DNA of 64,000 nucleotides from a virus: positions 1-64,000 of the IMG/VR virus record IMGVR_UViG_3300031469_000005; one strand, 5' to 3'. A program made the translations under genes and the position numbers. The notes below the pieces were generated by a model, which worked only from the letters and a program-made list of their open reading frames with translations, made no database searches and was not told where the DNA came from. Below, piece by piece: positions 21,137-48,279 of this stretch (positions are counted from its first letter, which is position 1; each line of letters opens with the position of its first letter).

Positions 21137-21396
21137 ATTTGAATGTTCAAACCGGGTGACGTTTGTCTTGTCATACAAGATTGGAGTTGTTTTCCTTTGC
21201 CGGGAGAGCAATTGGTTGACAGGATCGTAAGGAAGAACGATTTGTGTCTTGTCATTCAACACGATTCCAAGATCGTAGCACGAAATGAATTCAGCGATAT
21301 CAACGTTCTCGTTCTCATAAAGGGTCGTTTGGGTCGAATGAATGCTCGGGCAATCGCTCGTTACACGTTGGTCAGACAAGTTAGTAAGATTTGAAC

Positions 21397-22314
21397 GTGG
21401 CTAAACTGAAATCAAGGTCGGTCGTATCATCATCACCTTCCTTTCAGGAAGTGAAGAAATGGTATCATGACAATCTGCACCCCGATGCAAACAATTACGA
21501 TGATCCGAACGTGTATAAATACGTATACCACGAATCTCGCTTCGCAGGTATCTTTCAATGCACCTCGAGCGGTGCTCAAAAGTTCTTCGTAAGGGGGAAA
21601 CCTGAATCAATTACGGACATCGCCGCGCTAACTTCAATATATCGCCCGGGGCCGCTTTCTGCGAAAGTTGATCGCATATATCTTGACGCAAAGAACGGAA
21701 AGAAGTTCGAGTGGGGTCACCCCATCTTTGAAGAGGTTCTGGGTGATACGTACAACGCTTTGGTGTTTCAGGAATCCGTGATGGATCTTGCGGAAAAGGT
21801 CGGTGGTTTTCCTAAGGATCAGTGCGACAACGTTCGAAGGGCGATCATGAAACGTGATCATTCGAAGGGAGCCGCCGCGATCAAGGAAATGAAGGACATG
21901 GAGGAAGCCTTCGTAAAGGGTGCGATGGCGAAAGGTATCAAGGAAGAAACCGCAAAGAGAAGTTACGAGACGATTTGTTTCATGAGCGGTTACGGCTTCA
22001 ACAGATGTGTATCATTTCAACAACTTATAAACATTTACGGTGTCACCGGTCAAAAAGATGGAACCAAGAAACTCAAAGATGTCAAACCGGGAGATCTCGT
22101 TCTATCTCGTGACGAAAAAATAAAGAAGAACGTTCTCGTCAAGGTTAAAAAAGTCCATTTTAATGGAACGAAACCACTTGTTCGGGTTACATTGAAATCT
22201 GGAGAAGTAATCGAGTGTACGAGGGATCACAAGTTCAGGGTGAAGGAAACGGGACAGATGCTCCCACTTCACGAGATAATCGACCGACAACTTTCGATCG
22301 TGGTATCTTCTTAG
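21397..22314 (+). CDS. dnaE: DnaE fragment 2 (fingers) fused to split N-intein (22006..22311)
   Basis: AGIFQ, SIYRPGP, LVFQESVM, GYGFNR|CVSF..ECTRDHKF; start is GTG 21397 or TTG 21391. Confidence 0.93.
   Translation: MAKLKSRSVVSSSPSFQEVKKWYHDNLHPDANNYDDPNVYKYVYHESRFAGIFQCTSSGAQKFFVRGKPESITDIAALTSIYRPGPLSAKVDRIYLDAKNGKKFEWGHPIFEEVLGDTYNALVFQESVMDLAEKVGGFPKDQCDNVRRAIMKRDHSKGAAAIKEMKDMEEAFVKGAMAKGIKEETAKRSYETICFMSGYGFNRCVSFQQLINIYGVTGQKDGTKKLKDVKPGDLVLSRDEKIKKNVLVKVKKVHFNGTKPLVRVTLKSGEVIECTRDHKFRVKETGQMLPLHEIIDRQLSIVVSS
22006..22311 (+). mobile_element. Split intein, N-part (102 aa)
   Basis: Cys1 after FNR, block B CTRDH, then stop. Confidence 0.9.
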
Positions 22315-22322
22315 AGTGAACT

Positions 22323-23396
22323 ATGACATTTCTCAAAACAAGATTTACAAAAAAGATTGGTAAAAATAATCAATCTTACAAAAAAGTGATCAGCGAATAT
22401 TCGTGCGACTTTTGTAAATCATCGTTTGAACGTGGTGGTAAAGAAAATTCAAAGTATAGATACTGTGACAAATCTTGTCAAGATCAATCACGATGTAGAG
22501 GAACTTCTACGGGTGATGCGACAAGACTGAAAATTTCAAAAGCAGCAAACGAAAGATTTAATGATCCCATAAGGGGGTCATTACTTCGTGAAAAGCATTC
22601 GATTTCTATCAAGTTGGCACATCAAAATGATCCCACGATCGGTAAAAGATCCAAACAAACTTGTATTTTACGACACGGAAAATCGGCGTTGCAATTGGCA
22701 CGTAAATCATTTGTAGAAAAATATAATGTTTCCTCGCCTGGGTGTTTAAACCACGTTAAAGAAATTGCACGTGCCAATATGAAATCACTTCATTCTTCCG
22801 GGAGGCTAAAACAAGCTTTCATTGATTCAATGGGAGTTGATAATCCGTGGAAATCTCGTGTCGTTCAAGAAAAATGCAAAAAAACTTCTTTTGAACGTTT
22901 TGGAGTTCCAAATAGTTTCATGCTTGATGAAACAAAAAAGAATTCTCATTCGAAGGAATCAATGCAAAAACGACATCAAACAATGAAGAAAAATGGAACA
23001 TACCATACTTCGAATGCAGAGGAATTCATGTATGCAATTTTGTTGAATAATTATCAACACGTTGTTCGCCAACATAAATTTCCAATCGGAGGATTAAGCG
23101 ATTTTTACATTTCTTCGATTCAAACATATGTTCAGGTTGACGGTGATTATTGGCATGGATTTAATCGAACCATTGAAGAAGTTGAATTATTTGTTACTCC
23201 CCGTGATCGACAAATTTTTGTCACTATGAACAACGATTTGAAGCAAAATGAATTCTTCGCTTCAAGACAAACTGATTTTTGTTTATTTCGAATTTCAGAG
23301 TCAATCATAGTAAAAATGAAAGATCAACTAGAACAGATTACAATTGCTGGCATCGAAAATGCGAAACTTCTGGGATTGAATAAAATTTATGTCTAA
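22323..23396 (+). CDS. Free-standing homing endonuclease (Vsr/DUF559-like) between the intein halves
   Basis: SNAEE..SDFYI..YVQVDGDYWHG; TSFERFGV-type repeats; AT-rich. Confidence 0.8.
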   Translation: MTFLKTRFTKKIGKNNQSYKKVISEYSCDFCKSSFERGGKENSKYRYCDKSCQDQSRCRGTSTGDATRLKISKAANERFNDPIRGSLLREKHSISIKLAHQNDPTIGKRSKQTCILRHGKSALQLARKSFVEKYNVSSPGCLNHVKEIARANMKSLHSSGRLKQAFIDSMGVDNPWKSRVVQEKCKKTSFERFGVPNSFMLDETKKNSHSKESMQKRHQTMKKNGTYHTSNAEEFMYAILLNNYQHVVRQHKFPIGGLSDFYISSIQTYVQVDGDYWHGFNRTIEEVELFVTPRDRQIFVTMNNDLKQNEFFASRQTDFCLFRISESIIVKMKDQLEQITIAGIENAKLLGLNKIYV

Positions 23397-23499
23397 TATT
23401 CTCTCAGTTGAAGAAATTGGAAATCATGAAACTTGTGATCTTGAAGTTGATCATTGTGATCACCAGTTTTATCTCGCTAATGGTATTCTAACATCGAAC
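23389..23499 (+). mobile_element. Split intein, C-part
   Basis: Blocks F/G, terminal Asn followed by Ser+1 at 23500. Confidence 0.9.
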
Positions 23500-24429
23500 A
23501 GCCATGCCACGGCTTACGCTATTGATTCATATATGTGTTCCTGGCTCATGTACCATCACGAGACTCAATGGCTCACGGCTTACCTCGAATCAATGTCGGG
23601 TAACGACGATTCTCGTGCTAAGGCATTCGCTGAGGTTCGTGCAATGGGTTACGACATCGTTCCTATCGATATCATGCATGCAACCTCAGGTTGGACGGTT
23701 CTCCCCGGAAAAAAATTAATGCCAGCGCTGACGACCGCGAAAGGCGTTGGTGGTACTGCCGCAGAGGAATTGCAATCGCTTCGTCCGTTCGATTCATTCG
23801 AAGAATTGTTATGGGATGAGAATGGCACATGGCGTCTCGGCAAGTTCAATAAGCGCGCTCTCGAGGCGTTGATAAACGTCGAAGCCTTCAATAGCTTGGA
23901 TTGTGTAGGACCGGGAAAGTTGTTTGACAACTATAAACAAATGGGAATGATCGTGATCGATAGGATCAACGACATCAAGAAGACGACGAGGAAGGATCCT
24001 CATCTTGGAAGGAAACGTTTCTACGAACTTCTCCAAGAAACCCGAGGCGTGGAACCTTACACGAAGCTCGAACGCATCTTGCGAAGCATCAAACATTTCG
24101 GTACTGCGGACGTGAACATGATCATCTCCGAGGAGATGAAAAAAGGCTTGGCAAACATGGGTATCAAGTCGATCGACGAGTACGAAGAAAAGGGAACGTA
24201 CTGGTTTTGCATCGCTGAAACAACGCCCAAGCAATCGAAGACGGGGAAGAAGTACCTGATGTTGAAGGTACAGGGGCCGTCTGGAAAGACGTACAAGATG
24301 TTCATGTGGGGCTGGAACGGTACGAAGAAGTTCGATAAGTACGCTCTCATTGGAGCTGAGATCAGCAATGATCCAGAATTTGGTTTTTCGACATCAATGT
24401 TCAAAATGCGTGAACTTGACGACGGTTGA
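23389..24429 (+). CDS. dnaE: Split C-intein (37 aa) fused to DnaE fragment 3 (HhH/OB region)
   Basis: MSNILSVEEIG..CDLEV..HQFYLANGILTSN|SHATAYA; KGVG; FNKRALEALI. Confidence 0.93.
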   Translation: MSNILSVEEIGNHETCDLEVDHCDHQFYLANGILTSNSHATAYAIDSYMCSWLMYHHETQWLTAYLESMSGNDDSRAKAFAEVRAMGYDIVPIDIMHATSGWTVLPGKKLMPALTTAKGVGGTAAEELQSLRPFDSFEELLWDENGTWRLGKFNKRALEALINVEAFNSLDCVGPGKLFDNYKQMGMIVIDRINDIKKTTRKDPHLGRKRFYELLQETRGVEPYTKLERILRSIKHFGTADVNMIISEEMKKGLANMGIKSIDEYEEKGTYWFCIAETTPKQSKTGKKYLMLKVQGPSGKTYKMFMWGWNGTKKFDKYALIGAEISNDPEFGFSTSMFKMRELDDG

Positions 24430-24866: not shown

Positions 24867-25430
24867 ATGTTGATGTCGTTCAAGAAAACGAAGAAGCCTT
24901 TTAAGCAACGGATCATAATCCTTGAAGGCGTCGACATGAGCGGCAAAACTGAAATTTCTCATGAACTTTCGAAACGTCTTGACATTCCCCGATTCAAGGC
25001 TTCAAACGAACACGATGTGTTCTTGAATCGTTCTGAGAACCACTTCATCAAGCACCTCCAGTATGCTGATCCCCGAGTCGTCGATCTTCTTTCACAGACA
25101 AAACAATCACTGATCATGGATCGTGCCTATCCTTCAGAATGGGTCTACAGTAAGGTCTTAGGACGTGAAACGGACGATCGAATGCTAGAAAAAATCGATC
25201 AATCATTTGCAAATCTCGGTGCGTGGATCATAATCTGTCACAGATCTTCATACGCATCGATCGTCGATGATCTCGATTCTTCAATCGATGCATCGGTTCT
25301 TGATCGTCTTGACAATGAGTACAGGCGTTTCTTGAAGTTCACGAAATGCAAGACGATGCTTTTGAATGTTGATGACGAGAACCTACAACGTGAAATCAAT
25401 GACATCATGTTCGTGATTGGAGATGAATAA
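24867..25430 (+). CDS. dNMP/thymidylate kinase-like
   Basis: IILEGVDMSGKT P-loop; IMDRAYPSEWVY. Confidence 0.85.
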   Translation: MLMSFKKTKKPFKQRIIILEGVDMSGKTEISHELSKRLDIPRFKASNEHDVFLNRSENHFIKHLQYADPRVVDLLSQTKQSLIMDRAYPSEWVYSKVLGRETDDRMLEKIDQSFANLGAWIIICHRSSYASIVDDLDSSIDASVLDRLDNEYRRFLKFTKCKTMLLNVDDENLQREINDIMFVIGDE

Positions 25431-25432
25431 GA

Positions 25433-26191
25433 ATGGGACTTGATTCCAGTAAACTTGCAAACAGCGTTCCCGAATGGATTAAACCAGAACTCGAAAAATC
25501 GAGAGGTGCGTTCACGAGTCATGAAACGTTCACGTATTCGCAATTAAAAGACGACTCATCATACAGGTGGAATACACCAAAAAATGTCACGATACAGTTT
25601 GTATCACGTAATCGCCACTACAACACGGATTCAAGATTCAGGATCGCGATCTACAGTGATATTGAAATCACGAATCAACGATTCTACATTGCATACGATG
25701 ATACGACGGGACATTACATTCAGGATCATCACACGTACCACATTCTAAGCAAGCATGATACGTTGAACGCCGCTCAAGTTTCAATGAGCAACCTTGCAAA
25801 AAAGCACTTTCAACCGATTCTTAGGGAAATTGCTCTTAAGAAATCTGAATCCATAATTGACACGCCCGGTCAACTTTGCAAGACACAAATCGGATTCAAC
25901 AATCGATGTCTACCGGTCCGTATCGGCGATCACGTGATTTACGATGACAAGATTTACAAGGGATGGATATTCGTTGTAGAACAGTAAGATTTACAACGGG
26001 TAGCAAAGTTACGAATTCATGCTGTGTACTGCGGTCTCGAACAAAAGAAACCTCGTATTAAGAGGATGTGCGTCAACTCGTATAGTTTGCAACATGTCGA
26101 CATTTTAGCTTTGGGCCAATCGTTTCAACGATTGAAAACTATCATTGACAACGTTGTCAAGGCAAAGCAGATGAATCATGAAAAAGAATGA
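25433..26191 (+). pseudogene. Hypothetical gene interrupted by an in-frame TAA at 25985-25987
   Basis: Same frame stays open after the stop (DLQRVAKLRIHAVY...) until TGA at 26191. Confidence 0.45.
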
Positions 26192-26751
26192 ACATATTTG
26201 CAAGTGGCATCTCATTCACCCTCGAGGCCTGAAATGTCATCCCGATTATGATTTCTGTATTGGGGGTGAATGTGGGGGTTCCGCACCGGATGAAACAAGA
26301 CAACGAGTCATTGAACAAGAATCGATTAATTCAGCCTTAACAACATTGCTTGCAATAAACGTAATTGTTCTTTTGGGAGGATTGGGTTATGAAATTCTGG
26401 CATTGTTTTGTTCAGTTATTTACATGACAATTTCAATGGTTGCCTTTCCTCTCATTCGAGCAATACGTTCTTCAAGAAAACGTTCCAACGGTAAAATTGG
26501 CACGTGGTAGTGACATTTTTTGTCGTGTATGATAAATTCAATCATGAACAAAAACGTCGTTCGCAAGAAGAACCTCATCGCATTCGTTCGCTCTCAAGGT
26601 GTCACCGACGGGAAGACGTTCAACGAGATCATGCGGGCTTACAAGAACGAAGTTTCCCAGTGGGGTGCGTACGGACGAAATTTTTCGTTTAACGAGCTCG
26701 GTTCGCACTTTTACATTTGGACACGACTCGGTAAGATCACAGAATCTATTC

Positions 26752-27090
26752 ATGCTTAAGTACTTACGAATTGCTTCACACGTCAGCGTCAAGGGAAATC
26801 AGTACCGTAGAGCGTACTTGGGCGCTATCGGTGTACGTTCCGACGGAACGGTCGTTCAATCGTACAACGGAAGTTCCTTTGAAAGGGCACCTGATGCTCA
26901 TGCTGAGGCGCGATTGTCGAGAAAGCTCGACCACGGTTCGACGGTGTACGTTGCCCGGACACGTCGCGATAATGGCAAGATTGCGATGGCGAAACCTTGT
27001 AAAATGTGTCAGGCCGTGATGAGGAATCGGGGAATCACGAAGGTGTTCTACACGATAAACGAAAGTTCCTGGGGAACGATTGAGCTTTGA
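26752..27090 (+). CDS. Zn-dependent cytidine/dCMP deaminase-like protein
   Basis: HAE and KPCKMC motifs. Confidence 0.8.
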   Translation: MLKYLRIASHVSVKGNQYRRAYLGAIGVRSDGTVVQSYNGSSFERAPDAHAEARLSRKLDHGSTVYVARTRRDNGKIAMAKPCKMCQAVMRNRGITKVFYTINESSWGTIEL

Positions 27091-27524
27091 AAAATTCATC
27101 CCGGGAAAGATCTACAGAATATCGTACGGATATTTGAAAGAGGTCGTTAGCGATTGCACGTGCATTGGTTCAGTTGATAACGAATCTGGATCATGGGTAA
27201 CGTTGCTCTACAACAATGGAACGATAACGAAAATGTTCATCTCAAAGTTCAAAGATGATCTGTGGGATCTGTATTCAAAATCGAGTGATCAACTTGGAAT
27301 GCGAGTCACGATTCTTTTAATTGAATGAAAACACGATTCAATGAACTTGTCCCCGGTGATATTGTCATCATCAATGATGACTTAATTTTGAGCAAAATTG
27401 ATCGTAAAATTTATCTCGTCATACAGTACAGTCATACGATGTTTTACGTATTGAACAATCAAGGCAAAATTGAACGATTTTCTTGTAAGGGTACGTTGTC
27501 ATTTTACAATTTAAGGTGTGTTAT

Positions 27525-28847
27525 ATGAGAATGCTAATTCAGACTCAATTGTCTTCAATTACACGTGAAGGTAGATTCGATCTTGCAACGGACTCTGGAT
27601 ACCAAATGGTCATGGGTCGTTGTCGAGCAATGCTAAAACTTGATCCCGATCTTCGCATCGATGTGATGTGTCCTCATGCGAAGGATTGTGTTCTTTCTCC
27701 GTACGATCTTAGTTCTGATCTCATCAAGAAGTTCGGAGGCAAGTTGAACTTCTTGCACCATACAATCCTGCCGAACGCTCTTGCGACTAGGTTCGATTTC
27801 AACTTTGATGATTTGAATCTGTTACTTTCAACGAACAAGATGAAATATGACATCGTCTATTTAAACGATCCGTTGCATCTCAGAAATTTCAAGGCCTTGT
27901 TCAATGCGATGGGGCACCGTCCCAAGTTTGTCGTTCATTCCCATTTCATTGACAACAAGTCTCGACCAAAGTTCAAGTTGTGGGCGGGAACTGAGAATGA
28001 AGAGATTTCACCTCTCTGGCATGGCCAGGTGGAAGCAGCAATCGGGGCCGATCTGAACTTTTGGCAATGTGAATCTGCGATGGATATTTTCTTCAATGAA
28101 ATGTCACACGATTACAGCAAGACGCTTCTCGAAGAGGTGATCGAGAAAAGTCATGCTTCTGATGATGGATATTCCTCTGAAGAGATCAACGTCTATCCCG
28201 ATGATTCAAAGATCAGAATTGATCAAGAGCGGTTTTACGACGCCATCGCTCAAACAAAACAACACCCCGAGGGGAAGGTTGTTTTGTTTGTTCCAAATCG
28301 TTTTGGTGATAACGAAAATTACTACACGAACGTCTGGCGATTCATGTTCAACGTTCTTCCGGAACTCAGGAAGCTTCGAGATGATTTTATCGTGATATGT
28401 GGGTGTTCATCCAAACGATTATCGAATGAACAACTCGAATCAACGTTGGGTCAGCACGGCTATTTTAGCGTGGTACCCGACAGTTTGAACCGTGATGAGT
28501 ACAAATGGATCGCAAAGAACTCAGACATCGTGGGTGCATTTTACTCTGATGATAGTTTTGGTGGGACAGCCAGTCGCGAATGCATCGATTTGGGAATGAT
28601 GCCGCTTTGGCTCGATAACTACGAGTACTCAACGATTTCACGCGAAGCAAATTATCCTCGTGAATTCATTGCAAATCCCGATTTTTCTGATCTTGCGCAG
28701 GCTGCAAGTCGATTGATTGATCATGTTAAACTTGGAAAACAAGGTGATGATTGGAACCGACTTCAAAAGGTAGTTCGTAAACGATCATCATACGAAGAAA
28801 CGATGGAAAAAGCATACGCTTTAATGAAAGGATTGTTCAATGAATGA
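27525..28847 (+). CDS. GT-B fold glycosyltransferase, candidate DNA glycosyltransferase
   Basis: YDIVYLNDP, LFVPNR, DSFGGTASRECIDLGMMP (GT4-like C-terminal motif); near the TS homologue. Confidence 0.7.
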   Translation: MRMLIQTQLSSITREGRFDLATDSGYQMVMGRCRAMLKLDPDLRIDVMCPHAKDCVLSPYDLSSDLIKKFGGKLNFLHHTILPNALATRFDFNFDDLNLLLSTNKMKYDIVYLNDPLHLRNFKALFNAMGHRPKFVVHSHFIDNKSRPKFKLWAGTENEEISPLWHGQVEAAIGADLNFWQCESAMDIFFNEMSHDYSKTLLEEVIEKSHASDDGYSSEEINVYPDDSKIRIDQERFYDAIAQTKQHPEGKVVLFVPNRFGDNENYYTNVWRFMFNVLPELRKLRDDFIVICGCSSKRLSNEQLESTLGQHGYFSVVPDSLNRDEYKWIAKNSDIVGAFYSDDSFGGTASRECIDLGMMPLWLDNYEYSTISREANYPREFIANPDFSDLAQAASRLIDHVKLGKQGDDWNRLQKVVRKRSSYEETMEKAYALMKGLFNE

Positions 28848-29071
28848 TATTGTGCACTTGATTGAGTACGCTTCACAACCTGATATTCAATTCGTTTGTG
28901 ACAAGGAATGGTCGACACCTTCGTGGCCTTCCGATGCCTGGAGAAAAGGCATTGTCTTGCCTGAAGGGATTTATCTCGCAGACAACAAGCGACGATACAC
29001 GTTTGAAAAAAGCAAGACAACTTGTGAATGTTGCCTGAAACTGGCAACGAAGAGTTTGTAGTATTTGTTAG

Positions 29072-29881
29072 ATGTCTCAAGAAAATTCTCCCGATTTTCA
29101 TCGTTCAATTTTTGTTGGTATCCTTAAACCGCTAAAATACGCTCAGTTGGTAAGTCCTCGCGGACAACTGATCAAGGAACTTGAGAACTACTCTTACACG
29201 CTTCCTTACGAGGTTCGATTTCAAAGCTTTGCTTGTCGAAAGTTCAAGTTGAATTACGTGAAGCAGGAAGTTTTGTGGTATTTGCGGGGCGATAAGTTCG
29301 ATTTATCGATCTGTGATAAGGCAAAGATGTGGAAAGATCTTGTCAATCACGATGGATCAATCAACAGCAATTACGGACAATACATCTTCAATTCTACTTC
29401 GAATCAATTCAACAACGTTGTTAATACATTGAAACTTGATAAAGATAGTCGACGAGCGTCGATGACAATCTTGAATTCTGAACACTTGTTCTCGAATACC
29501 AAAGATGTTCCTTGTACATACGCATTGAATTTTCGAATTCGAAAGAACGTTCTCAACATGAGCGTCCTGATGAGATCCCAGGATGCATTCTTTGGGATGG
29601 CGAACGACGCGCCTGCTTTCAGCATCATGTTCGAAATGATGTTTCATGCGTTGAAAGAATTCTACCCGGATCTCGAACAAGGTTCGTATCATCATCATTG
29701 CAATTCGTTTCACGTGTACGAGAGACACTTCGAAATGCTTGACAATATTTTGGCAGGTGATGAATATTCGCTAATTAAGTGTCCAGAAATTTCGGGTTTC
29801 GACGAAGTGAAGTTCCTTCGTGAGTTGAATTTTTCAACAATTCCTGATCGGTTCGAATTTTCTAAATGGCTCACATCGTAA
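29072..29881 (+). CDS. Thymidylate synthase superfamily, dCMP hydroxymethylase-like
   Basis: DSRRA, DVPCT, MRSQDAFFGMAND (Asp at the E. coli ThyA Asn177 position), SFHVYE. Confidence 0.85.
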   Translation: MSQENSPDFHRSIFVGILKPLKYAQLVSPRGQLIKELENYSYTLPYEVRFQSFACRKFKLNYVKQEVLWYLRGDKFDLSICDKAKMWKDLVNHDGSINSNYGQYIFNSTSNQFNNVVNTLKLDKDSRRASMTILNSEHLFSNTKDVPCTYALNFRIRKNVLNMSVLMRSQDAFFGMANDAPAFSIMFEMMFHALKEFYPDLEQGSYHHHCNSFHVYERHFEMLDNILAGDEYSLIKCPEISGFDEVKFLRELNFSTIPDRFEFSKWLTS

Positions 29882-30216
29882 ACGAAGAGATCACCGCTCT
29901 CGATTACACAAAGTATCGGCAGGTAGGCAACGCGCGCTCATCTGCCATCAAATCTTGACCAGTCTTCTGGCCCGGCGTTGGCCCGGCTGGTACTGGTGGA
30001 AATGCCCGTGCGCGGTGGTGAATCCACAAGATTTGAAACGAAATGACCTATTCATTGCGTATACGGGGTCAAATTTAGAACAATGGTTCATAATTGACGT
30101 CATATGTGGTGGTGAACGTTTCACCGCTTGGACGAGCGTAATGTATCTTTGTCGTTCAAAAGTTAGAACGTTGAGTTGTTCGAGGTTTCGTTTACTACAA
30201 GGCATGTTGGTACGCA

Positions 30217-31065
30217 ATGAGTAAAATGGGTTACAGGCCGTACACGTTTTTTTCGGGAGAATTTCGCGTCTCGATGCCAGCCGTTTTTTCGATGGACAAC
30301 TGGCAACATTCAAGCACGGCAGAACGCTTGATAGTTCGTGAAGGACTTGTCTACAGAGAGCGCCGTCCAAATGATCCTGTCGATGGGATCATTCATTTTG
30401 CTGACCTCGTTGACAAGGACATTGAACGTAACAATTATCAGGTTGTAATCGATAGTGGTTTACATTGCTGGCCCAATCCAAAGGTTCTTCTTCGAATGAT
30501 CGATCGATACGATGTTCTTGATGAATGCGTGCGAAGTGGATTCATAGATCACGAAATTCACATCAACACGCAACTTGACACCGACGCATTGTATGACATG
30601 TTTGATTTTACGAAGAGCGGGAAGCTCGTTGTCAAGATGGGAAACGTCCATCGAGGCGAAGGAAAATTTCTCATTGAGAACGTTGAACAATTTCCCGCAG
30701 TCACGTCCAGGTTTTCAATTGAATCGTACTTTGAGGGAATTTCGGTACGTTCATTGATCATTGGTGGTGATACGTTCGGAATTCGAGTTGAGAACGATCG
30801 TTCTTGGATAAAGAATTCAGCTGGTGCCGACATTGATGATTACGAGCTCTCAAAAGAGTTGATTGAACATTCACGAAATGTTGCGTATAATTTCGAATTG
30901 GACGTTGCAGGAGTTGATTACATCGTCGAAAAAGATGGAAATTTCAAGTTGCTTGAAATCAATTTCTGTCCCGGTGTTTCGGGATCCGATCGCATCGAAG
31001 AGTGCGCGAAGGAATTCTTTAAAAAGAAGATGCGTGAAATCGAGGAGCGATCACGTAAGAAATGA
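30217..31065 (+). CDS. ATP-grasp (RimK-like) ligase
   Basis: VVKMGNVHRGEGK, VAGVDYI, LLEINFCPG. Confidence 0.8.
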   Translation: MSKMGYRPYTFFSGEFRVSMPAVFSMDNWQHSSTAERLIVREGLVYRERRPNDPVDGIIHFADLVDKDIERNNYQVVIDSGLHCWPNPKVLLRMIDRYDVLDECVRSGFIDHEIHINTQLDTDALYDMFDFTKSGKLVVKMGNVHRGEGKFLIENVEQFPAVTSRFSIESYFEGISVRSLIIGGDTFGIRVENDRSWIKNSAGADIDDYELSKELIEHSRNVAYNFELDVAGVDYIVEKDGNFKLLEINFCPGVSGSDRIEECAKEFFKKKMREIEERSRKK

Positions 31066-31932
31066 ATCGATGTAGGAAATAATTGGAGAAATGCCAAAAA
31101 GTTCGAATTGAACGTCTGTTATTCTAAACAATTTAACGTTGTGTTCCTTAAACCACTCATTTTGTTCTTGGTCGTTCATCCATTTTTGGTAAATTCCGAT
31201 ATCACGTGGTTTTTTTGATGCCTTGATTTTTTCGATCGGTCGATCAAGTCCATGCCAGTAAACACCGTCAAATTGAACGTAAATATCGAATTGTTCGATG
31301 TGAATGTCAATTAGCCATTTATGTACTCGTTTTTGTCGATTTATCGTTCCGTATTTTTCTTCGAGAATTTTCGATAGTTTGATCTCGCCAACCGATGACC
31401 ATTTGTTGGGAAATTTAGTCATTTTTAGAAATAGATTTTCTCGACATTTTTCTTGTGGAAATGGTCTGTATGGAACACCGTAGTTCTTTAACCAGGTTTC
31501 TTCACGCTTTTCTCGTAATTTTTTTGACTGGAACGTGTACTTCACACCGTGATTTTTTATCATCGTTGCTGTGTACTTTTCAAGCTGTTCTGGAACACCC
31601 CACATTGAGGCACTGCCGTATTTTTCAATTCTTGTGTTGATACCTTTTTGGGTTACGGATTTGTTTTGTGCCGCCCAAGATGTTCCATATCGTTCTAAGC
31701 ACGTTTTTTCGCCCTCTAGTTGAACCTTGCTTCCCTTTTTTGAACTTGCGAATTTACAATGATTTGAACAAAAATGCATACCAGATTTAGAATTAATTTT
31801 GCGTTTTGCGCCGTGTTCATATTCAACGCCGCAATCAACGTTATCACACTTTAAAACGTACAGAATTTTAGGTTTTTTGAACTGATTTCCTTTGTAAGTA
31901 AAATGAATTTTTTCTATCGTTCTCAAAAACAT
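31051..31932 (-). CDS. Free-standing homing endonuclease, paralogue of 22323..23396
   Basis: TCLERYG repeats; YVQFDGVYWHGLDR..PRD. Confidence 0.8.
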   Translation of the reverse strand: MFLRTIEKIHFTYKGNQFKKPKILYVLKCDNVDCGVEYEHGAKRKINSKSGMHFCSNHCKFASSKKGSKVQLEGEKTCLERYGTSWAAQNKSVTQKGINTRIEKYGSASMWGVPEQLEKYTATMIKNHGVKYTFQSKKLREKREETWLKNYGVPYRPFPQEKCRENLFLKMTKFPNKWSSVGEIKLSKILEEKYGTINRQKRVHKWLIDIHIEQFDIYVQFDGVYWHGLDRPIEKIKASKKPRDIGIYQKWMNDQEQNEWFKEHNVKLFRITDVQFELFGISPIISYIDSFLT

Positions 31933-31955
31933 GATAATAGATATTCGACATAAGT

Positions 31956-32513
31956 ATGAAAGTACCTGAATTTATTGTATATTGCGGTCCGATGTTCAGC
32001 GGTAAGACGTCTAATCTTCTCTCGTACATTGATAAGTGCAAGTACCAGAAACGTAGTGTGATCGCGTTCAAGCCATCGCTTGACAATCGTTACAGTCAAT
32101 CATCGATCGTTTCTCATAACGGTTGGCAAACTGATGCAATCGTGATTTCAAGCATTGATGAGTTGTACGAGCACATCGTAAGGCTGGATGAAAAACCGAA
32201 CGTTGTTGCGTTCGACGAGGTTTTCATGCTTGAAGGTACAGCCGATGCATTGATATGGATGTTCAAAGAGGGAATAACCATCGTCGCTTCGAGTCTCGAC
32301 ATTGGTTACAATGGGAAGACGTTCAAGGAGGTCGAAAGGATACTACCTTGGGCGACAAAGATAGAAAAATGTCCCGCGGTTTGCACGGTTTGCGGTAATG
32401 ACGCTTTCTATACCCACAAAAAGGTTTTCAACGAAAACGAGATAGAAATTGGTGGAGTTGATCTTTATGAATCGAGATGTTTTGAACACCATCCATTTGT
32501 GAGAAATGCTTAA
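31956..32513 (+). CDS. tdk: Thymidine kinase
   Basis: GPMFSGKT, FKPSLDNRY, FDEVF, CTVC..IGG..YESRC. Confidence 0.95.
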   Translation: MKVPEFIVYCGPMFSGKTSNLLSYIDKCKYQKRSVIAFKPSLDNRYSQSSIVSHNGWQTDAIVISSIDELYEHIVRLDEKPNVVAFDEVFMLEGTADALIWMFKEGITIVASSLDIGYNGKTFKEVERILPWATKIEKCPAVCTVCGNDAFYTHKKVFNENEIEIGGVDLYESRCFEHHPFVRNA

Positions 32514-33148
32514 GATTTTTGACAGCGCGAAATTCTTTACACGGTTGAACGGTCATAACATGACACCCCGTGAAAGGACGAGGAATCTTAAGGGAAAATT
32601 GTTATTGGTATTGGGAAGAACAAAGCATCGTCAAACATTGCACTGGCCGATCGTTTATGTTCTTTGTGAGGGAAACATGTACACAAAAACGTATTCAACG
32701 ATTGAAATGTTGAATAATGACTGGAAATTCGATGATCGGTAGATTGATCGGGATTGGTACCGAGGGTGAATGTTGTGAAAAGTGGAAGGCACTCAGCCAC
32801 ATGTTCAACGAGGGATCCGATTGTTCGACAAGAATGAGGTCGATTCAAATTAACAATCAATTCTTGATGGTCCTTTCAATGACGAAACAAAATGCTCATG
32901 TAGATCTGTGGAAAATCATTTACATGAAACAGAATGGTAAAACACTGTTTCAGTTCTATGAGCCCCGCTGGATGAAACAATTTAAAGATTTCGTAGATCA
33001 ACACACGATTGCTCGAGCATTGAACGAACCATCGTTAGTGTTGTACGTTAACACATGAAGAATTTTTTGACGGGTGCTGTCACTTTTTTGATTTGTACGC
33101 TGGCAGCGTTTTCTCTCTATTATTGTTCGGTCGTCGGAATCAAATGAA

Positions 33149-33757
33149 ATGATTGATGCACGAATACCCTGGCCACGTCTTTGGATGAACATCGCTCACC
33201 AGATCGCGAATGCAAGATCGCTCGACCCACGACTAAAGGTGGGGTGTATTATCGTTCCCGAAGATAACACACGAATTCTGGCTATGGGTTACAATGGTAA
33301 GGCAAAAGGAGAAAGTAATGAACCAGACAGTTTAGAACCTGGACAATCGGGAATGGTTCACGCTGAGCAGAATTCATTGATAAAACTTGATTTTAATGAT
33401 CATAAAAGAAAAATCATGTATGTTACAACGGAACCTTGTTTAATATGTTCACGCATGATTATTAATGCTGGTATTACCACAGTAGTTTATGATAAATCAT
33501 ATCGTGATCATTCTGGTTTATTTTTGTTAAAAAAATCTGGAATTAATGTGTTTCAGATTAATGAAATGAATTCGATTCAACCAAAATTTAATGCGTTTTC
33601 TTCTGATATCGGAAATAAATGTTGTGAATATGTAGATCATGATCGCAAAGAGAAAAAATTGCAAACGAATTTCTTTAGAAGAAATCGAATACACAAATTT
33701 TTTACAACCACAATCAAGCAAATTATTACGACAATTTCATTTCAATCAAAAACTTGA
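33149..33757 (+). CDS. dCMP deaminase (ComEB-like)
   Basis: KVGCII, MGYNG, VHAEQN, EPCLIC. Confidence 0.9.
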   Translation: MIDARIPWPRLWMNIAHQIANARSLDPRLKVGCIIVPEDNTRILAMGYNGKAKGESNEPDSLEPGQSGMVHAEQNSLIKLDFNDHKRKIMYVTTEPCLICSRMIINAGITTVVYDKSYRDHSGLFLLKKSGINVFQINEMNSIQPKFNAFSSDIGNKCCEYVDHDRKEKKLQTNFFRRNRIHKFFTTTIKQIITTISFQSKT

Positions 33758-35052: not shown

Positions 35053-35760
35053 ATGGAAAAGTTTAAGGATCTTCTAAATGACATCGATCTTAAAAAGATC
35101 GTTCGTGAATCGATCAATGGAACAAAGCAACCTCTGAAGGAAGCATACGTTTCCAAGCAAAAGACGTTCAATCAGGTCTCTGAGTTCGTCTCGCAAAAGA
35201 CGAAGGATGCTCACACGAAGCTCTACGCTGGTTACGTTGATTCCAGCAACAAGACATCTGCTGAACTCGACACTGTGAATCGTTCACCTGATGAGGTCAA
35301 TTCATCACACAGCAAGTACCGCTCGCTGAAGCTCGATGAGACGTACAACCTGAACGCGAAGTGGTTGCATGAGCTTTACTTCGCCAACTGCTACGACCCG
35401 CATTCAGAAATTTTCATGGATACACTTTCGTACATGAAGATCCAGCGTGACTTTGGCGACTTCGATTCCTGGCAAAAGGACATGATCGCTTGCGGTCTTG
35501 CGGCCGGTAACGGTTGGGCGGTTCTCGCTTACAACATGCACTTGCAGCGTTACGTTAACACGATCGTTAGCAATCACTCAGGCGACGTCATGATGGGATT
35601 GTTCCCCGTTCTCGTCATTGACATGAATGAACATGCTTATTCACGTGATTACCTCGATGACAAAAAAAGTTATCTCGTCGCGATGATGCGTGAGATCAAT
35701 TGGAACGTTGTTGAGGAACGTTTCACCAAGGCAGAAAAGATTGCTCAGGTACTGAAGTGA
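35053..35760 (+). CDS. Fe/Mn superoxide dismutase-like protein with N-terminal extension
   Basis: AHTKLYAGYV, LHELYF, RDFGDFD, GWAVL, PVLVIDMNEHAY..DY, INW. Confidence 0.85.
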   Translation: MEKFKDLLNDIDLKKIVRESINGTKQPLKEAYVSKQKTFNQVSEFVSQKTKDAHTKLYAGYVDSSNKTSAELDTVNRSPDEVNSSHSKYRSLKLDETYNLNAKWLHELYFANCYDPHSEIFMDTLSYMKIQRDFGDFDSWQKDMIACGLAAGNGWAVLAYNMHLQRYVNTIVSNHSGDVMMGLFPVLVIDMNEHAYSRDYLDDKKSYLVAMMREINWNVVEERFTKAEKIAQVLK

Positions 35761-47187: not shown

Positions 47188-48279
47188 TCATGCCTCAACC
47201 TTACCATGCAATCTACCTTGAAATAGTACATTCGTTCTCTCGATGACGTTCTTTCTCCAGCGAACCAAGGTTGCATTCGATTCCACGAGATTGAATCCCA
47301 GATGCGACGCAATCATGACCAAGGTTACCAATACAACCCATTCAAAGAACTCTGCAAGACCGTTCTGGGGCCTTCCAAGAAAGTGTAGCATCACACCCAT
47401 GACGATGTAGTGAAACAAGTACGTTGAATACGATGTCTCACCGAACCTAACGAGAAGTTTCGTTATCGAACCCGTTCGAGGAATCACTGGCTCGAACAAG
47501 AGACCCGCGGTGACAATCCCGAAGGCTGACAGCAACCTCATGCCATCGAGGTCGAGATACAGGAAGCTTAGCGAGGGAGCGAGAATCATTGATGCGATTA
47601 ACGTGGAATTCTTTTCAACGAGACATGAAATGCGAGGAATGTATTTCTTGAATGTTTCAACGTTCAAGTACGACCAACCCAGCACGATTCCCAAGACGAA
47701 CTCGTAGAGCTTTCGGGTTCCCAACACCGCCCCGTAGAACCAATCCCTTTGCCAGACGATAGGTACAAGCATGAGAACGATACAACATGTTACGAAGCGA
47801 AACCTTCGTCCGAATGAAAAACACAATGCGAGCAAAACGTAGAAGAAGATTTCGATGTTCAACGTCCAACCAACGATCAGTGGAGGAAACGGTCCCAATC
47901 CCGCGGGATTTTCAGTTGGAACGAACAACAGGCTCGAAATCAATGTCTTGATGTTCCAGTCTGTGTACGAAAACTCGGCTGGAAAGATGAACTTCATCGA
48001 GATGATGATGAATGTTGCCAACCAGTACGCAGGAACGATCCTGAACATTCGGTTCAACAGGAATGTCTTTGCATCGTGCTCCTTCGACGTTGCAGCATAA
48101 AAAATGATGAAACCGCTGATGATGAAGAAAATGTCGACGCCGAAGTTTCCTTGCTGGGCAAAAAACCCCGCGAACGTTGATGACAACTCTCTGCCGAAAT
48201 GATGAAGAACGACGAGCCAGGCAGCGAGAGCCCTCAGGATCTGAATTGATTGAATGCTTGAACGAGTGTTGGAATTCAT
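47188..48279 (-). CDS. Acyltransferase family 3 (OafA-like) membrane protein
   Basis: IQILRALAAWLVVLHH, GVDIFFIISGFII, RMFRIVPAYW, WTLNIEIFFY, GETSYSTYLFH. Confidence 0.93.
   Translation of the reverse strand: MNSNTRSSIQSIQILRALAAWLVVLHHFGRELSSTFAGFFAQQGNFGVDIFFIISGFIIFYAATSKEHDAKTFLLNRMFRIVPAYWLATFIIISMKFIFPAEFSYTDWNIKTLISSLLFVPTENPAGLGPFPPLIVGWTLNIEIFFYVLLALCFSFGRRFRFVTCCIVLMLVPIVWQRDWFYGAVLGTRKLYEFVLGIVLGWSYLNVETFKKYIPRISCLVEKNSTLIASMILAPSLSFLYLDLDGMRLLSAFGIVTAGLLFEPVIPRTGSITKLLVRFGETSYSTYLFHYIVMGVMLHFLGRPQNGLAEFFEWVVLVTLVMIASHLGFNLVESNATLVRWRKNVIERTNVLFQGRLHGKVEA

Follow-up and report, generated by a model that had tools for sequence, protein, structure and literature searches.

The DNA analysed here, referred to as the window, covers positions 1 to 64,000 of an IMG/VR contig of 112,886 bp (IMGVR_UViG_3300031469_000005; completeness estimate, 33%). 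Its source is an uncultured soil jumbo phage, to which Ralstonia phage RsoM2USA, from the XacN1-like group, is the closest isolate. Every major gene between 21 and 37 kb lies on the plus strand, and the stretch from 24867 to 33757 carries on that strand a gene cluster with a predicted role in cytosine hypermodification. Its members are a thymidylate-kinase-like P-loop kinase of 187 amino acids (aa) (24867-25430), a GT4-like glycosyltransferase (GT) of the GT-B type (27516-28847; 443 aa, or 440 aa in the database form, which starts at 27525), a ThyA-fold homologue of thymidylate synthase (TS) (29072-29881; 269 aa; PF00303), a thymidine kinase (TK) (31956-32513; PF00265 at 6e-38), and a dCMP deaminase (33149-33757; PF00383 at 3.7e-19). 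The end of the GT gene and the start of the TS homologue are separated by 224 nucleotides (nt), with only a 73-aa open reading frame (ORF) between them. A first-pass annotation of this DNA had placed a GT-B enzyme ~225 nt upstream of the TS homologue and a deoxynucleoside monophosphate kinase nearby, and both are indeed there. For comparison, we used 28 related IMG/VR loci that encode an orthologue of the GT at 40 to 50% identity.

The TS homologue (longer excerpt, MRSQDAFFGMAND) matches PF00303 at 1.8e-24. Among proteins of solved structure, its best match is the CMP 5-hydroxymethylase MilA (1e-16), followed by T4 gp42 (1.4e-15); most true thymidylate synthases do no better than 1e-9, although one of them reaches 8.5e-15. 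In HMMER alignments, the Asp of its GMAND motif, within the stretch MRSQDAFFGMANDAP, coincides with Asp179 in the FGFRND stretch of T4 dCMP hydroxymethylase and with the corresponding Asp in MilA, at the position of Asn177 in Escherichia coli ThyA, as the first-pass annotation had stated. The catalytic Cys is kept (Cys146, in VPCT) and aligns with T4 Cys148. Three residues before it, a second Asp occupies the E. coli Leu143 position (TKDVPC, like MSDFMC in T4), and pairwise alignment with RB69 gp48 shows that Asp169 is retained (MRSQD in the window versus MRSQN in RB69). In E. coli numbering, N177D accounts for the choice of dCMP and L143D/E for hydroxymethylation via water entry, and D169N is the hallmark of the 5-hydroxy-dCMP synthases, dependent on flavin, that RB69, DLP3, Thanatos, and RL38JI encode; the signature was derived for the most part from enzymes of Straboviridae (PMC13326640). 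Asn at 169 is found neither in the window enzyme nor in any of its 26 syntenic relatives, all of which share Asp143, Cys146, Asp169, and Asp177 with it. Since Asp169 is kept, 5-hydroxymethylcytosine (5hmC) is predicted and not 5-hydroxycytosine (5hoC), and a 5hoC product was rejected for want of D169N. Judged by its residues, the window TS homologue is predicted to be a 5-hydroxymethyl-dCMP synthase, neither a 5-hydroxy-dCMP synthase nor a thymidylate synthase. The dCMP-type assignment made in the first-pass annotation is thus supported by the published signature; of the three C5 groups that it had offered, hydroxymethyl stands, and methyl and hydroxy are disfavored by Asp143 and Asp169, respectively.

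Pfam and NCBIfam label the protein only as thymidylate synthase, as would be the case if it were an ordinary member of that family and the phage DNA were canonical. This identity was rejected and is scarcely credible, because Asp replaces both Asn177 and Leu143, NCBIfam scores reach at most 68 bits, far short of the equivalog cut-off of 327, and relatives of this phage have ThyX for dTMP.

The window TS homologue is 63% identical to RsoM2USA gene 10 and 29% identical to T4 gp42. In a maximum-likelihood (ML) tree, the comparison that the first-pass annotation had proposed, it forms a clade with RsoM2USA gene 10 and the enzyme of locus L004 (support, 97/94), and this clade is sister to the enzymes of Xanthomonas phage Xp15 and Acinetobacter phage MD-2021a (96/90). 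The gp42 clade, which contains T4 gp42, is separate (100/100), meaning that the window enzyme is not a gp42 orthologue, even though it is predicted to work like gp42. The genes that accompany members of its own lineage are informative. In RsoM2USA, a jumbo myovirus of the XacN1-like group that has no homologue of the window GT, the orthologous TS is followed ~4.6 kb downstream by a gene of the T4 beta-GT family (PF09198 at 7e-24). Xp15 and MD-2021a, taken here to represent the clusters for carbamoyl transfer to 5hmC (Yang et al., eLife 2021, PMC8670742), have TS homologues 38 to 41% identical to that of the window, with the same Asp143, Asp169, and Asp177 and with a deaminase gene nearby; there the tailoring enzyme, encoded two to three genes upstream of the TS homologue, is a NodU-type carbamoyltransferase and not a GT. 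This carbamoyltransferase family has been shown to carbamoylate 5hmC (PMC8670742). Both kinds of partner need a CH2OH acceptor, which hints, by analogy, that the clade makes the hydroxymethyl group.

A different C5 group is one alternative: the TS homologue may instead make 5-methyl-dCMP as in XP12, 5-hydroxy-dCMP as in RB69, or an undescribed product, with the GT, if it acts on DNA, using that group. The clade of the window enzyme has no biochemically characterised member, the signature comes mostly from Straboviridae, and the N177D exchange by itself suffices to make ThyA a dCMP methylase, according to work cited in PMC8670742. On the other hand, Asp at the Leu143 position speaks against methylation and Asp169 against 5hoC, a methyl group would offer the GT no acceptor, and the beta-GT and carbamoyltransferase partners of the clade need hydroxymethyl. 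We consider this alternative distinctly unlikely.

Two further observations concern enzymes of these comparison phages. RsoM2USA gene 2 (L001:14412-15542), annotated as hypothetical, belongs to the beta-GT family and predicts glucosyl-5hmC DNA in that phage, on which its description paper is silent. The "deoxyuridylate hydroxymethyltransferase" of Pseudoxanthomonas phage PW916 (L049:226-1044), on a long branch of the tree, has Asp at the Asn177 position (GVPYD); by this residue it is probably a dCMP-type enzyme, so that its annotation may be wrong.

The GT has no match in Pfam, PHROG, or NCBIfam (E <= 0.01 for Pfam and NCBIfam) or, by phmmer, among PDB sequences, and searching the PDB with a profile of its family brought up no GT either. 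With 48 metagenomic homologues as input, AlphaFold2 gave a confident model (pLDDT, 91.3; pTM, 0.89) that shows the two Rossmann domains of a GT-B enzyme. Foldseek places this model among retaining GT-B enzymes of families GT4, GT5, and GT20 (E values of 1e-11 to 3e-13), and VIA alignments spanning 340 to 370 residues give Z scores of 29.7 for BshA, 28.6 for sucrose-phosphate synthase (SPS), 28.3 for MshA, 27.9 for PimA, and 27.8 for PglA. The assignment to GT4-like retaining GT-B enzymes is therefore one by fold and not by sequence family HMM. Invariant residues of the family (D343...G346, T348, R351, E352...G357, P360) map, by the family alignment and the model, to the loop and helix that bear the EX7E motif in GT4 enzymes. 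Neighbours in the ESM Atlas are viral hypothetical proteins and GT1/GT4 clusters; its structure search also returned a tRNA-queuosine mannosyltransferase cluster, a lead only.

The distribution of the family is almost entirely viral. The 363 homologues that we collected from metagenomes all lack a name, and many of them come from contigs of 100 to 350 kb; the window GT keeps all 67 of the invariant family columns. The family amounts to 169 clusters at 50% identity among 1.84 billion. A tblastn search with the GT and a distant relative found no isolate homologue in 50,697 phage records, and a single 1-kb contig of a metagenome-assembled genome matched among 185,579 species genomes. The first-pass annotation had remarked that the enzyme does not resemble the T4 GTs, and this was borne out: the GT profile gave hhalign probabilities of 0.9% for T4 alpha-GT and 0.5% for T4 beta-GT, and below 1% each for RB69 gp46, RB69 gp47, and RsoM2USA gene 11, all as single-sequence targets and hence a weak test, and neither PF09198 nor, by tblastn, any homologue of a-gt or b-gt was found on the contig, which is about a third of the genome. 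Based on the model and its surroundings, we propose that the GT represents an unnamed, virus-only GT4-like family of 5hmC DNA glycosyltransferases.

The link between this GT and the TS homologue is conserved. In the related loci the genes keep the order DnaE, kinase, GT, TS homologue, TK, dCMP deaminase, and superoxide dismutase (SOD). Of the 28 loci, 27 have the kinase upstream of the GT, and the remaining one starts at the GT; 26 have the TS homologue, and the two others end less than 2 kb past the GT; TK follows downstream of the TS homologue in 23/28 and the dCMP deaminase in 24/28. Because this order is kept in 28 contigs and the same Asp is found in all of the 26 GT-adjacent TS homologues, the arrangement is more than chance, and the genes for the kinase, the GT, and the TS homologue belong together as a conserved unit. 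The TS homologues of these loci fall into three well-supported clades in the ML tree, all with the same signature: the gp42 clade, a long form (330 to 360 aa) near phage G gp319, and the window clade. In 14 loci the hydroxymethylase is a true gp42 orthologue. Hence, at least two exchanges of the neighbouring TS have left the GT in place, and each brought in an enzyme whose predicted product is the same, as expected if the GT consumes the product of the TS; this pattern suggests that the GT depends on that product rather than on one particular enzyme. Linkage, gene identities, residue signature, and fold are what is shown for this cluster.

The relatives also bear on the supply of dTMP. Five of them are near complete (78 to 100%), and each encodes a single ThyA-family gene plus ThyX, as well as a gp56-like ORF 8 to 39 kb upstream of the GT. 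The presence of ThyX beside a lone ThyA homologue implies that the latter is not needed for dTMP in this lineage. The first-pass annotation had assigned dTMP supply to TK; TK is present, but it is not the sole route, as ThyX covers dTMP in the near-complete relatives. Neither ThyX nor a gp56-like dCTPase was found on the 113-kb contig, a negative that is uninformative since their expected position may lie past its left end.

A GT4-like GT beside a TS homologue has precedent in RB69, DLP3, and RL38JI, whose glycosyl-5-hydroxycytosine clusters were described in July 2026 (Lee et al., NAR 2026, PMC13326640). These clusters have the same core trio side by side, namely, a thymidylate-kinase-like kinase, a GT4-like GT-B, and an N177D TS homologue, and their GTs have the same structural neighbours as the window GT (BshA, MshA, SPS, and PimA). 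They differ in that their D169N TS makes 5-hydroxy-dCMP with flavin, whereas the window TS keeps Asp169; in that genes for arabinose activation lie inside the clusters, whereas the window cluster has none; and in a gene order that is reversed relative to the window. T4 is the classical model, but in architecture these clusters come closer to that of the window. T4 shares a ThyA-fold enzyme with Asp at the Asn177 and Leu143 positions and Asp169 kept, its b-gt adjoins gene 42 as the window GT adjoins the hydroxymethylase gene, and dCMP deaminase and TK are common to both, with a gp56-like ORF on our side only in the relatives of the window. In contrast to the cluster described here, T4 has a gp1-type kinase in place of a thymidylate-kinase-like one, its alpha-GT (GT72) and beta-GT (GT63) have no detectable sequence relation to the window GT, and it relies on td, in place of which the relatives have ThyX.

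The association extends further in a distant GT relative (26% identity; profile E value, 1e-27) from an unrelated, smaller phage group, represented by locus L053. This protein scores 25.0 bits against Glycos_transf_1, whose cut-off is 26.4, and is encoded 2 kb from a TS homologue with Asp177. That homologue has Asp143 as well but Ser at 169 (MMRSQSVVMVMPYD). In this region (L053:5260-9236, also in L054 and L055), it is followed by a U32-like gene that resembles RB69 gp50, a 195-aa ORF, and the distant GT, and then by a gene of the UDG superfamily and an unsplit DnaE. This arrangement indicates that the association of such GTs with Asp177 TS homologues reaches beyond the jumbo-phage lineage. 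The genomic context of distant relatives was covered in L053 to L055; three other single-protein scans for distant relatives matched nothing. As a separate observation, Ser169, and with it the combination of Asp143, Ser169, and Asp177, falls outside the published signature.

Taken together, we favor, with a probability of roughly 0.6, a 5hmC pathway in which the new GT4-like family attaches a sugar to the hydroxymethyl group on DNA. We infer every chemical step of it, together with the acceptor, the donor sugar, and the linkage. In outline it would be a T4-style pre-replicative replacement of cytosine, followed by glycosylation of the DNA. The ThyA-fold enzyme would take dCMP, chosen through Asp at the Asn177 position, and transfer a methylene group from methylene-tetrahydrofolate to C5, where attack by water, enabled by Asp at the Leu143 position, would yield 5-hydroxymethyl-dCMP. 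The thymidylate-kinase-like kinase, with host kinases, would carry this to the triphosphate, and the DnaE-type polymerase of the phage would incorporate it. The GT would then move a sugar from a UDP- or other NDP-sugar to the 5-CH2OH group in duplex DNA, probably with retention of the anomeric configuration and an alpha linkage, by analogy with its fold relatives. The pools would be balanced by dCMP deaminase and TK here and by ThyX and the gp56-like dCTPase in complete relatives, and DNA that resists host restriction and Cas nucleases would be expected to result.

Several points weigh against this reading. As the window TS lies outside the gp42 clade, the hydroxymethyl call rests on three residues and the gene partners. 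With no dCTPase or ThyX on the contig, full replacement of cytosine is not arguable for this phage. The GT has no profile-level link to RB69 gp46/47 or to T4 alpha-GT or beta-GT, and its fold cannot name DNA as the acceptor, because GT4 acceptors include lipids, proteins, small molecules, and glycans. Finally, the chemistry is predicted from genes only, and no cultured phage carries the GT family.

The acceptor is accordingly where the main rival lies. The phage may make 5hmC or another C5-modified cytosine and yet use the GT on something other than DNA, such as a virion protein, the host envelope, or a small molecule, the location in the replication module being regulatory. The diversity of GT4 acceptors leaves room for this, and the top viral structural matches of the model include actinophage GTs (e.g., Arthrobacter phage Kitkat, E value of 5e-19), relatives of which are linked to virion glycosylation. 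Other glycan genes occur on the contig far from the cluster: a Fringe-like GT-A gene (PF02434 at 8e-11; contig 88591-89367, L032:6591-7364) and a membrane acyltransferase_3 gene (PF01757 at 3e-28; window 47188-48279, minus strand). What makes the rival unlikely is that all 26 loci of sufficient length keep the GT between the kinase and a TS with Asp177 and Asp143 despite the TS exchanges, that the same triad occurs in clusters whose GTs are shown or proposed to act on DNA, and that the GT sits among early replication and nucleotide genes and not among structural genes.

The kinase fits a role in the glycosylated-5hmC pathway. The protein shows a P-loop (IILEGVDMSGKT) as well as a DR motif and matches phrog_761, "thymidylate kinase," at 1e-10, but stays below the cut-offs of Pfam TMPK and NCBIfam TIGR00041. 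By BLASTP it is 30% identical (E value, 2e-10) to gp45, which is the kinase encoded in the arabinosyl-5hoC cluster of RB69, and it is unrelated to T4 gp1. The kinase probably phosphorylates the modified dCMP.

The dCMP deaminase, with intact HAE and PCxxC motifs and a match to phrog_174 at 8e-41, is the counterpart of T4 cd. A second, small deaminase-fold ORF of ~112 aa (26599-27090; probable start, 26752), also with intact HAE and PCxxC zinc motifs, sits between kinase and GT, in addition to the canonical enzyme. Two such genes in one interval, together with a deaminase directly beside the TS in Xp15 and MD-2021a and near it in RsoM2USA, raise another route, in which 5-hydroxymethyl-dCMP is only an intermediate that is deaminated to 5-hydroxymethyl-dUMP, with the glycosylated base replacing thymine. 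We regard this as very improbable. T4 pairs dCMP deaminase with a hydroxymethylase and still makes hydroxymethylcytosine, the small deaminase is not conserved in relatives, and TK, along with ThyX in the relatives, indicates that ordinary dTMP is made.

The donor sugar of the favored 5hmC pathway is a question of supply. Just downstream of the GT, 27 of the 28 relatives encode a GalE/TviC-like epimerase of the SDR type, which is missing in the window copy and in L026; this presence or absence is a natural variant that could change the sugar used. No sugar-nucleotide gene was found between 24867 and 33757. The contig does encode a genuine UDP-glucuronate decarboxylase (UDP-xylose synthase, UXS) at 72935-73909 (L031:9935-10906), outside the window and 44 kb from the cluster, that matches human UXS1 at 9e-81 (next PDB match, 1e-32) and has orthologues of 50 to 56% identity in four of the five near-complete relatives. 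The GT may draw a pentose donor from this enzyme, although co-occurrence in the lineage is all that ties the two. One could go further and see in the GT family a new class of 5hmC DNA glycosyltransferases that install a pentose made by the phage UXS, xylose here and its 4-epimer (e.g., L-arabinose) in the 27 SDR-bearing relatives; we put this forward tentatively and hold it to be doubtful. To our knowledge, pentosyl-5hmC is unreported, and the known pentosylated cytosines are ether-linked to 5-hydroxycytosine. A new sugar or linkage, as the first-pass annotation had suggested, is no more than a possibility.

Hypermodified cytosines shield phage DNA against Cas nucleases as well as restriction enzymes, and the enzymes that make them are used as tools for 5hmC mapping and DNA labelling. 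The anti-restriction strategy is known; the enzyme family is uncharacterised, seen only in uncultured jumbo phages and essentially in no cellular genomes. If the GT glycosylates 5hmC, it would be an independently recruited DNA GT family beside the T4 alpha- and beta-GTs, the GT-A/TAGT type, and the RB69-type arabinosyltransferases. The kinase-GT-TS module would then extend from 5-hydroxycytosine to 5-hydroxymethylcytosine chemistry, and the presence or absence of the epimerase, combined with the linked UXS, would provide a route to new sugar-base combinations.

The remaining ORFs of the interval show no such conservation. The 73-aa ORF between the GT and the TS homologue (28840-29061, plus strand) has a single weak match, in L021, where it lies upstream of the GT of that locus, and was rejected as a remnant of the epimerase found at this place in relatives. 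Several small ORFs fill 25433-27528, and ORFs of 184, 110, 82, 67, 89, 78, and 113 aa in the interval were rejected as parts of the system, with counterparts in 0 of 28 loci. The small deaminase was likewise rejected, as was the RimK-like ATP-grasp gene (30217-31065); neither has a counterpart in the 28 loci. Among isolates, relatives of the ATP-grasp protein are only cyanophage "S6 glutaminyl transferase" genes, at ~30% identity over half of the protein. A scan for promoter and terminator consensus sequences gave counts close to shuffled expectation.

The cluster is flanked upstream by pieces of DnaE, the Pol III alpha subunit, split by a homing-endonuclease-like gene (21391-24429, plus strand), and downstream by SOD (35053-35760); a DUF7487 endonuclease-like gene lies within it on the minus strand (31051-31932). 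Elsewhere the contig encodes an unusual set of metabolic and repair proteins: PEPCK_ATP (2e-157), fructose-1,6-bisphosphatase, IMPDH/GMP reductase, Cpn60, Ku, two ATP-dependent DNA ligases, a Macro domain protein, NADAR, and pterin-4a-carbinolamine dehydratase.

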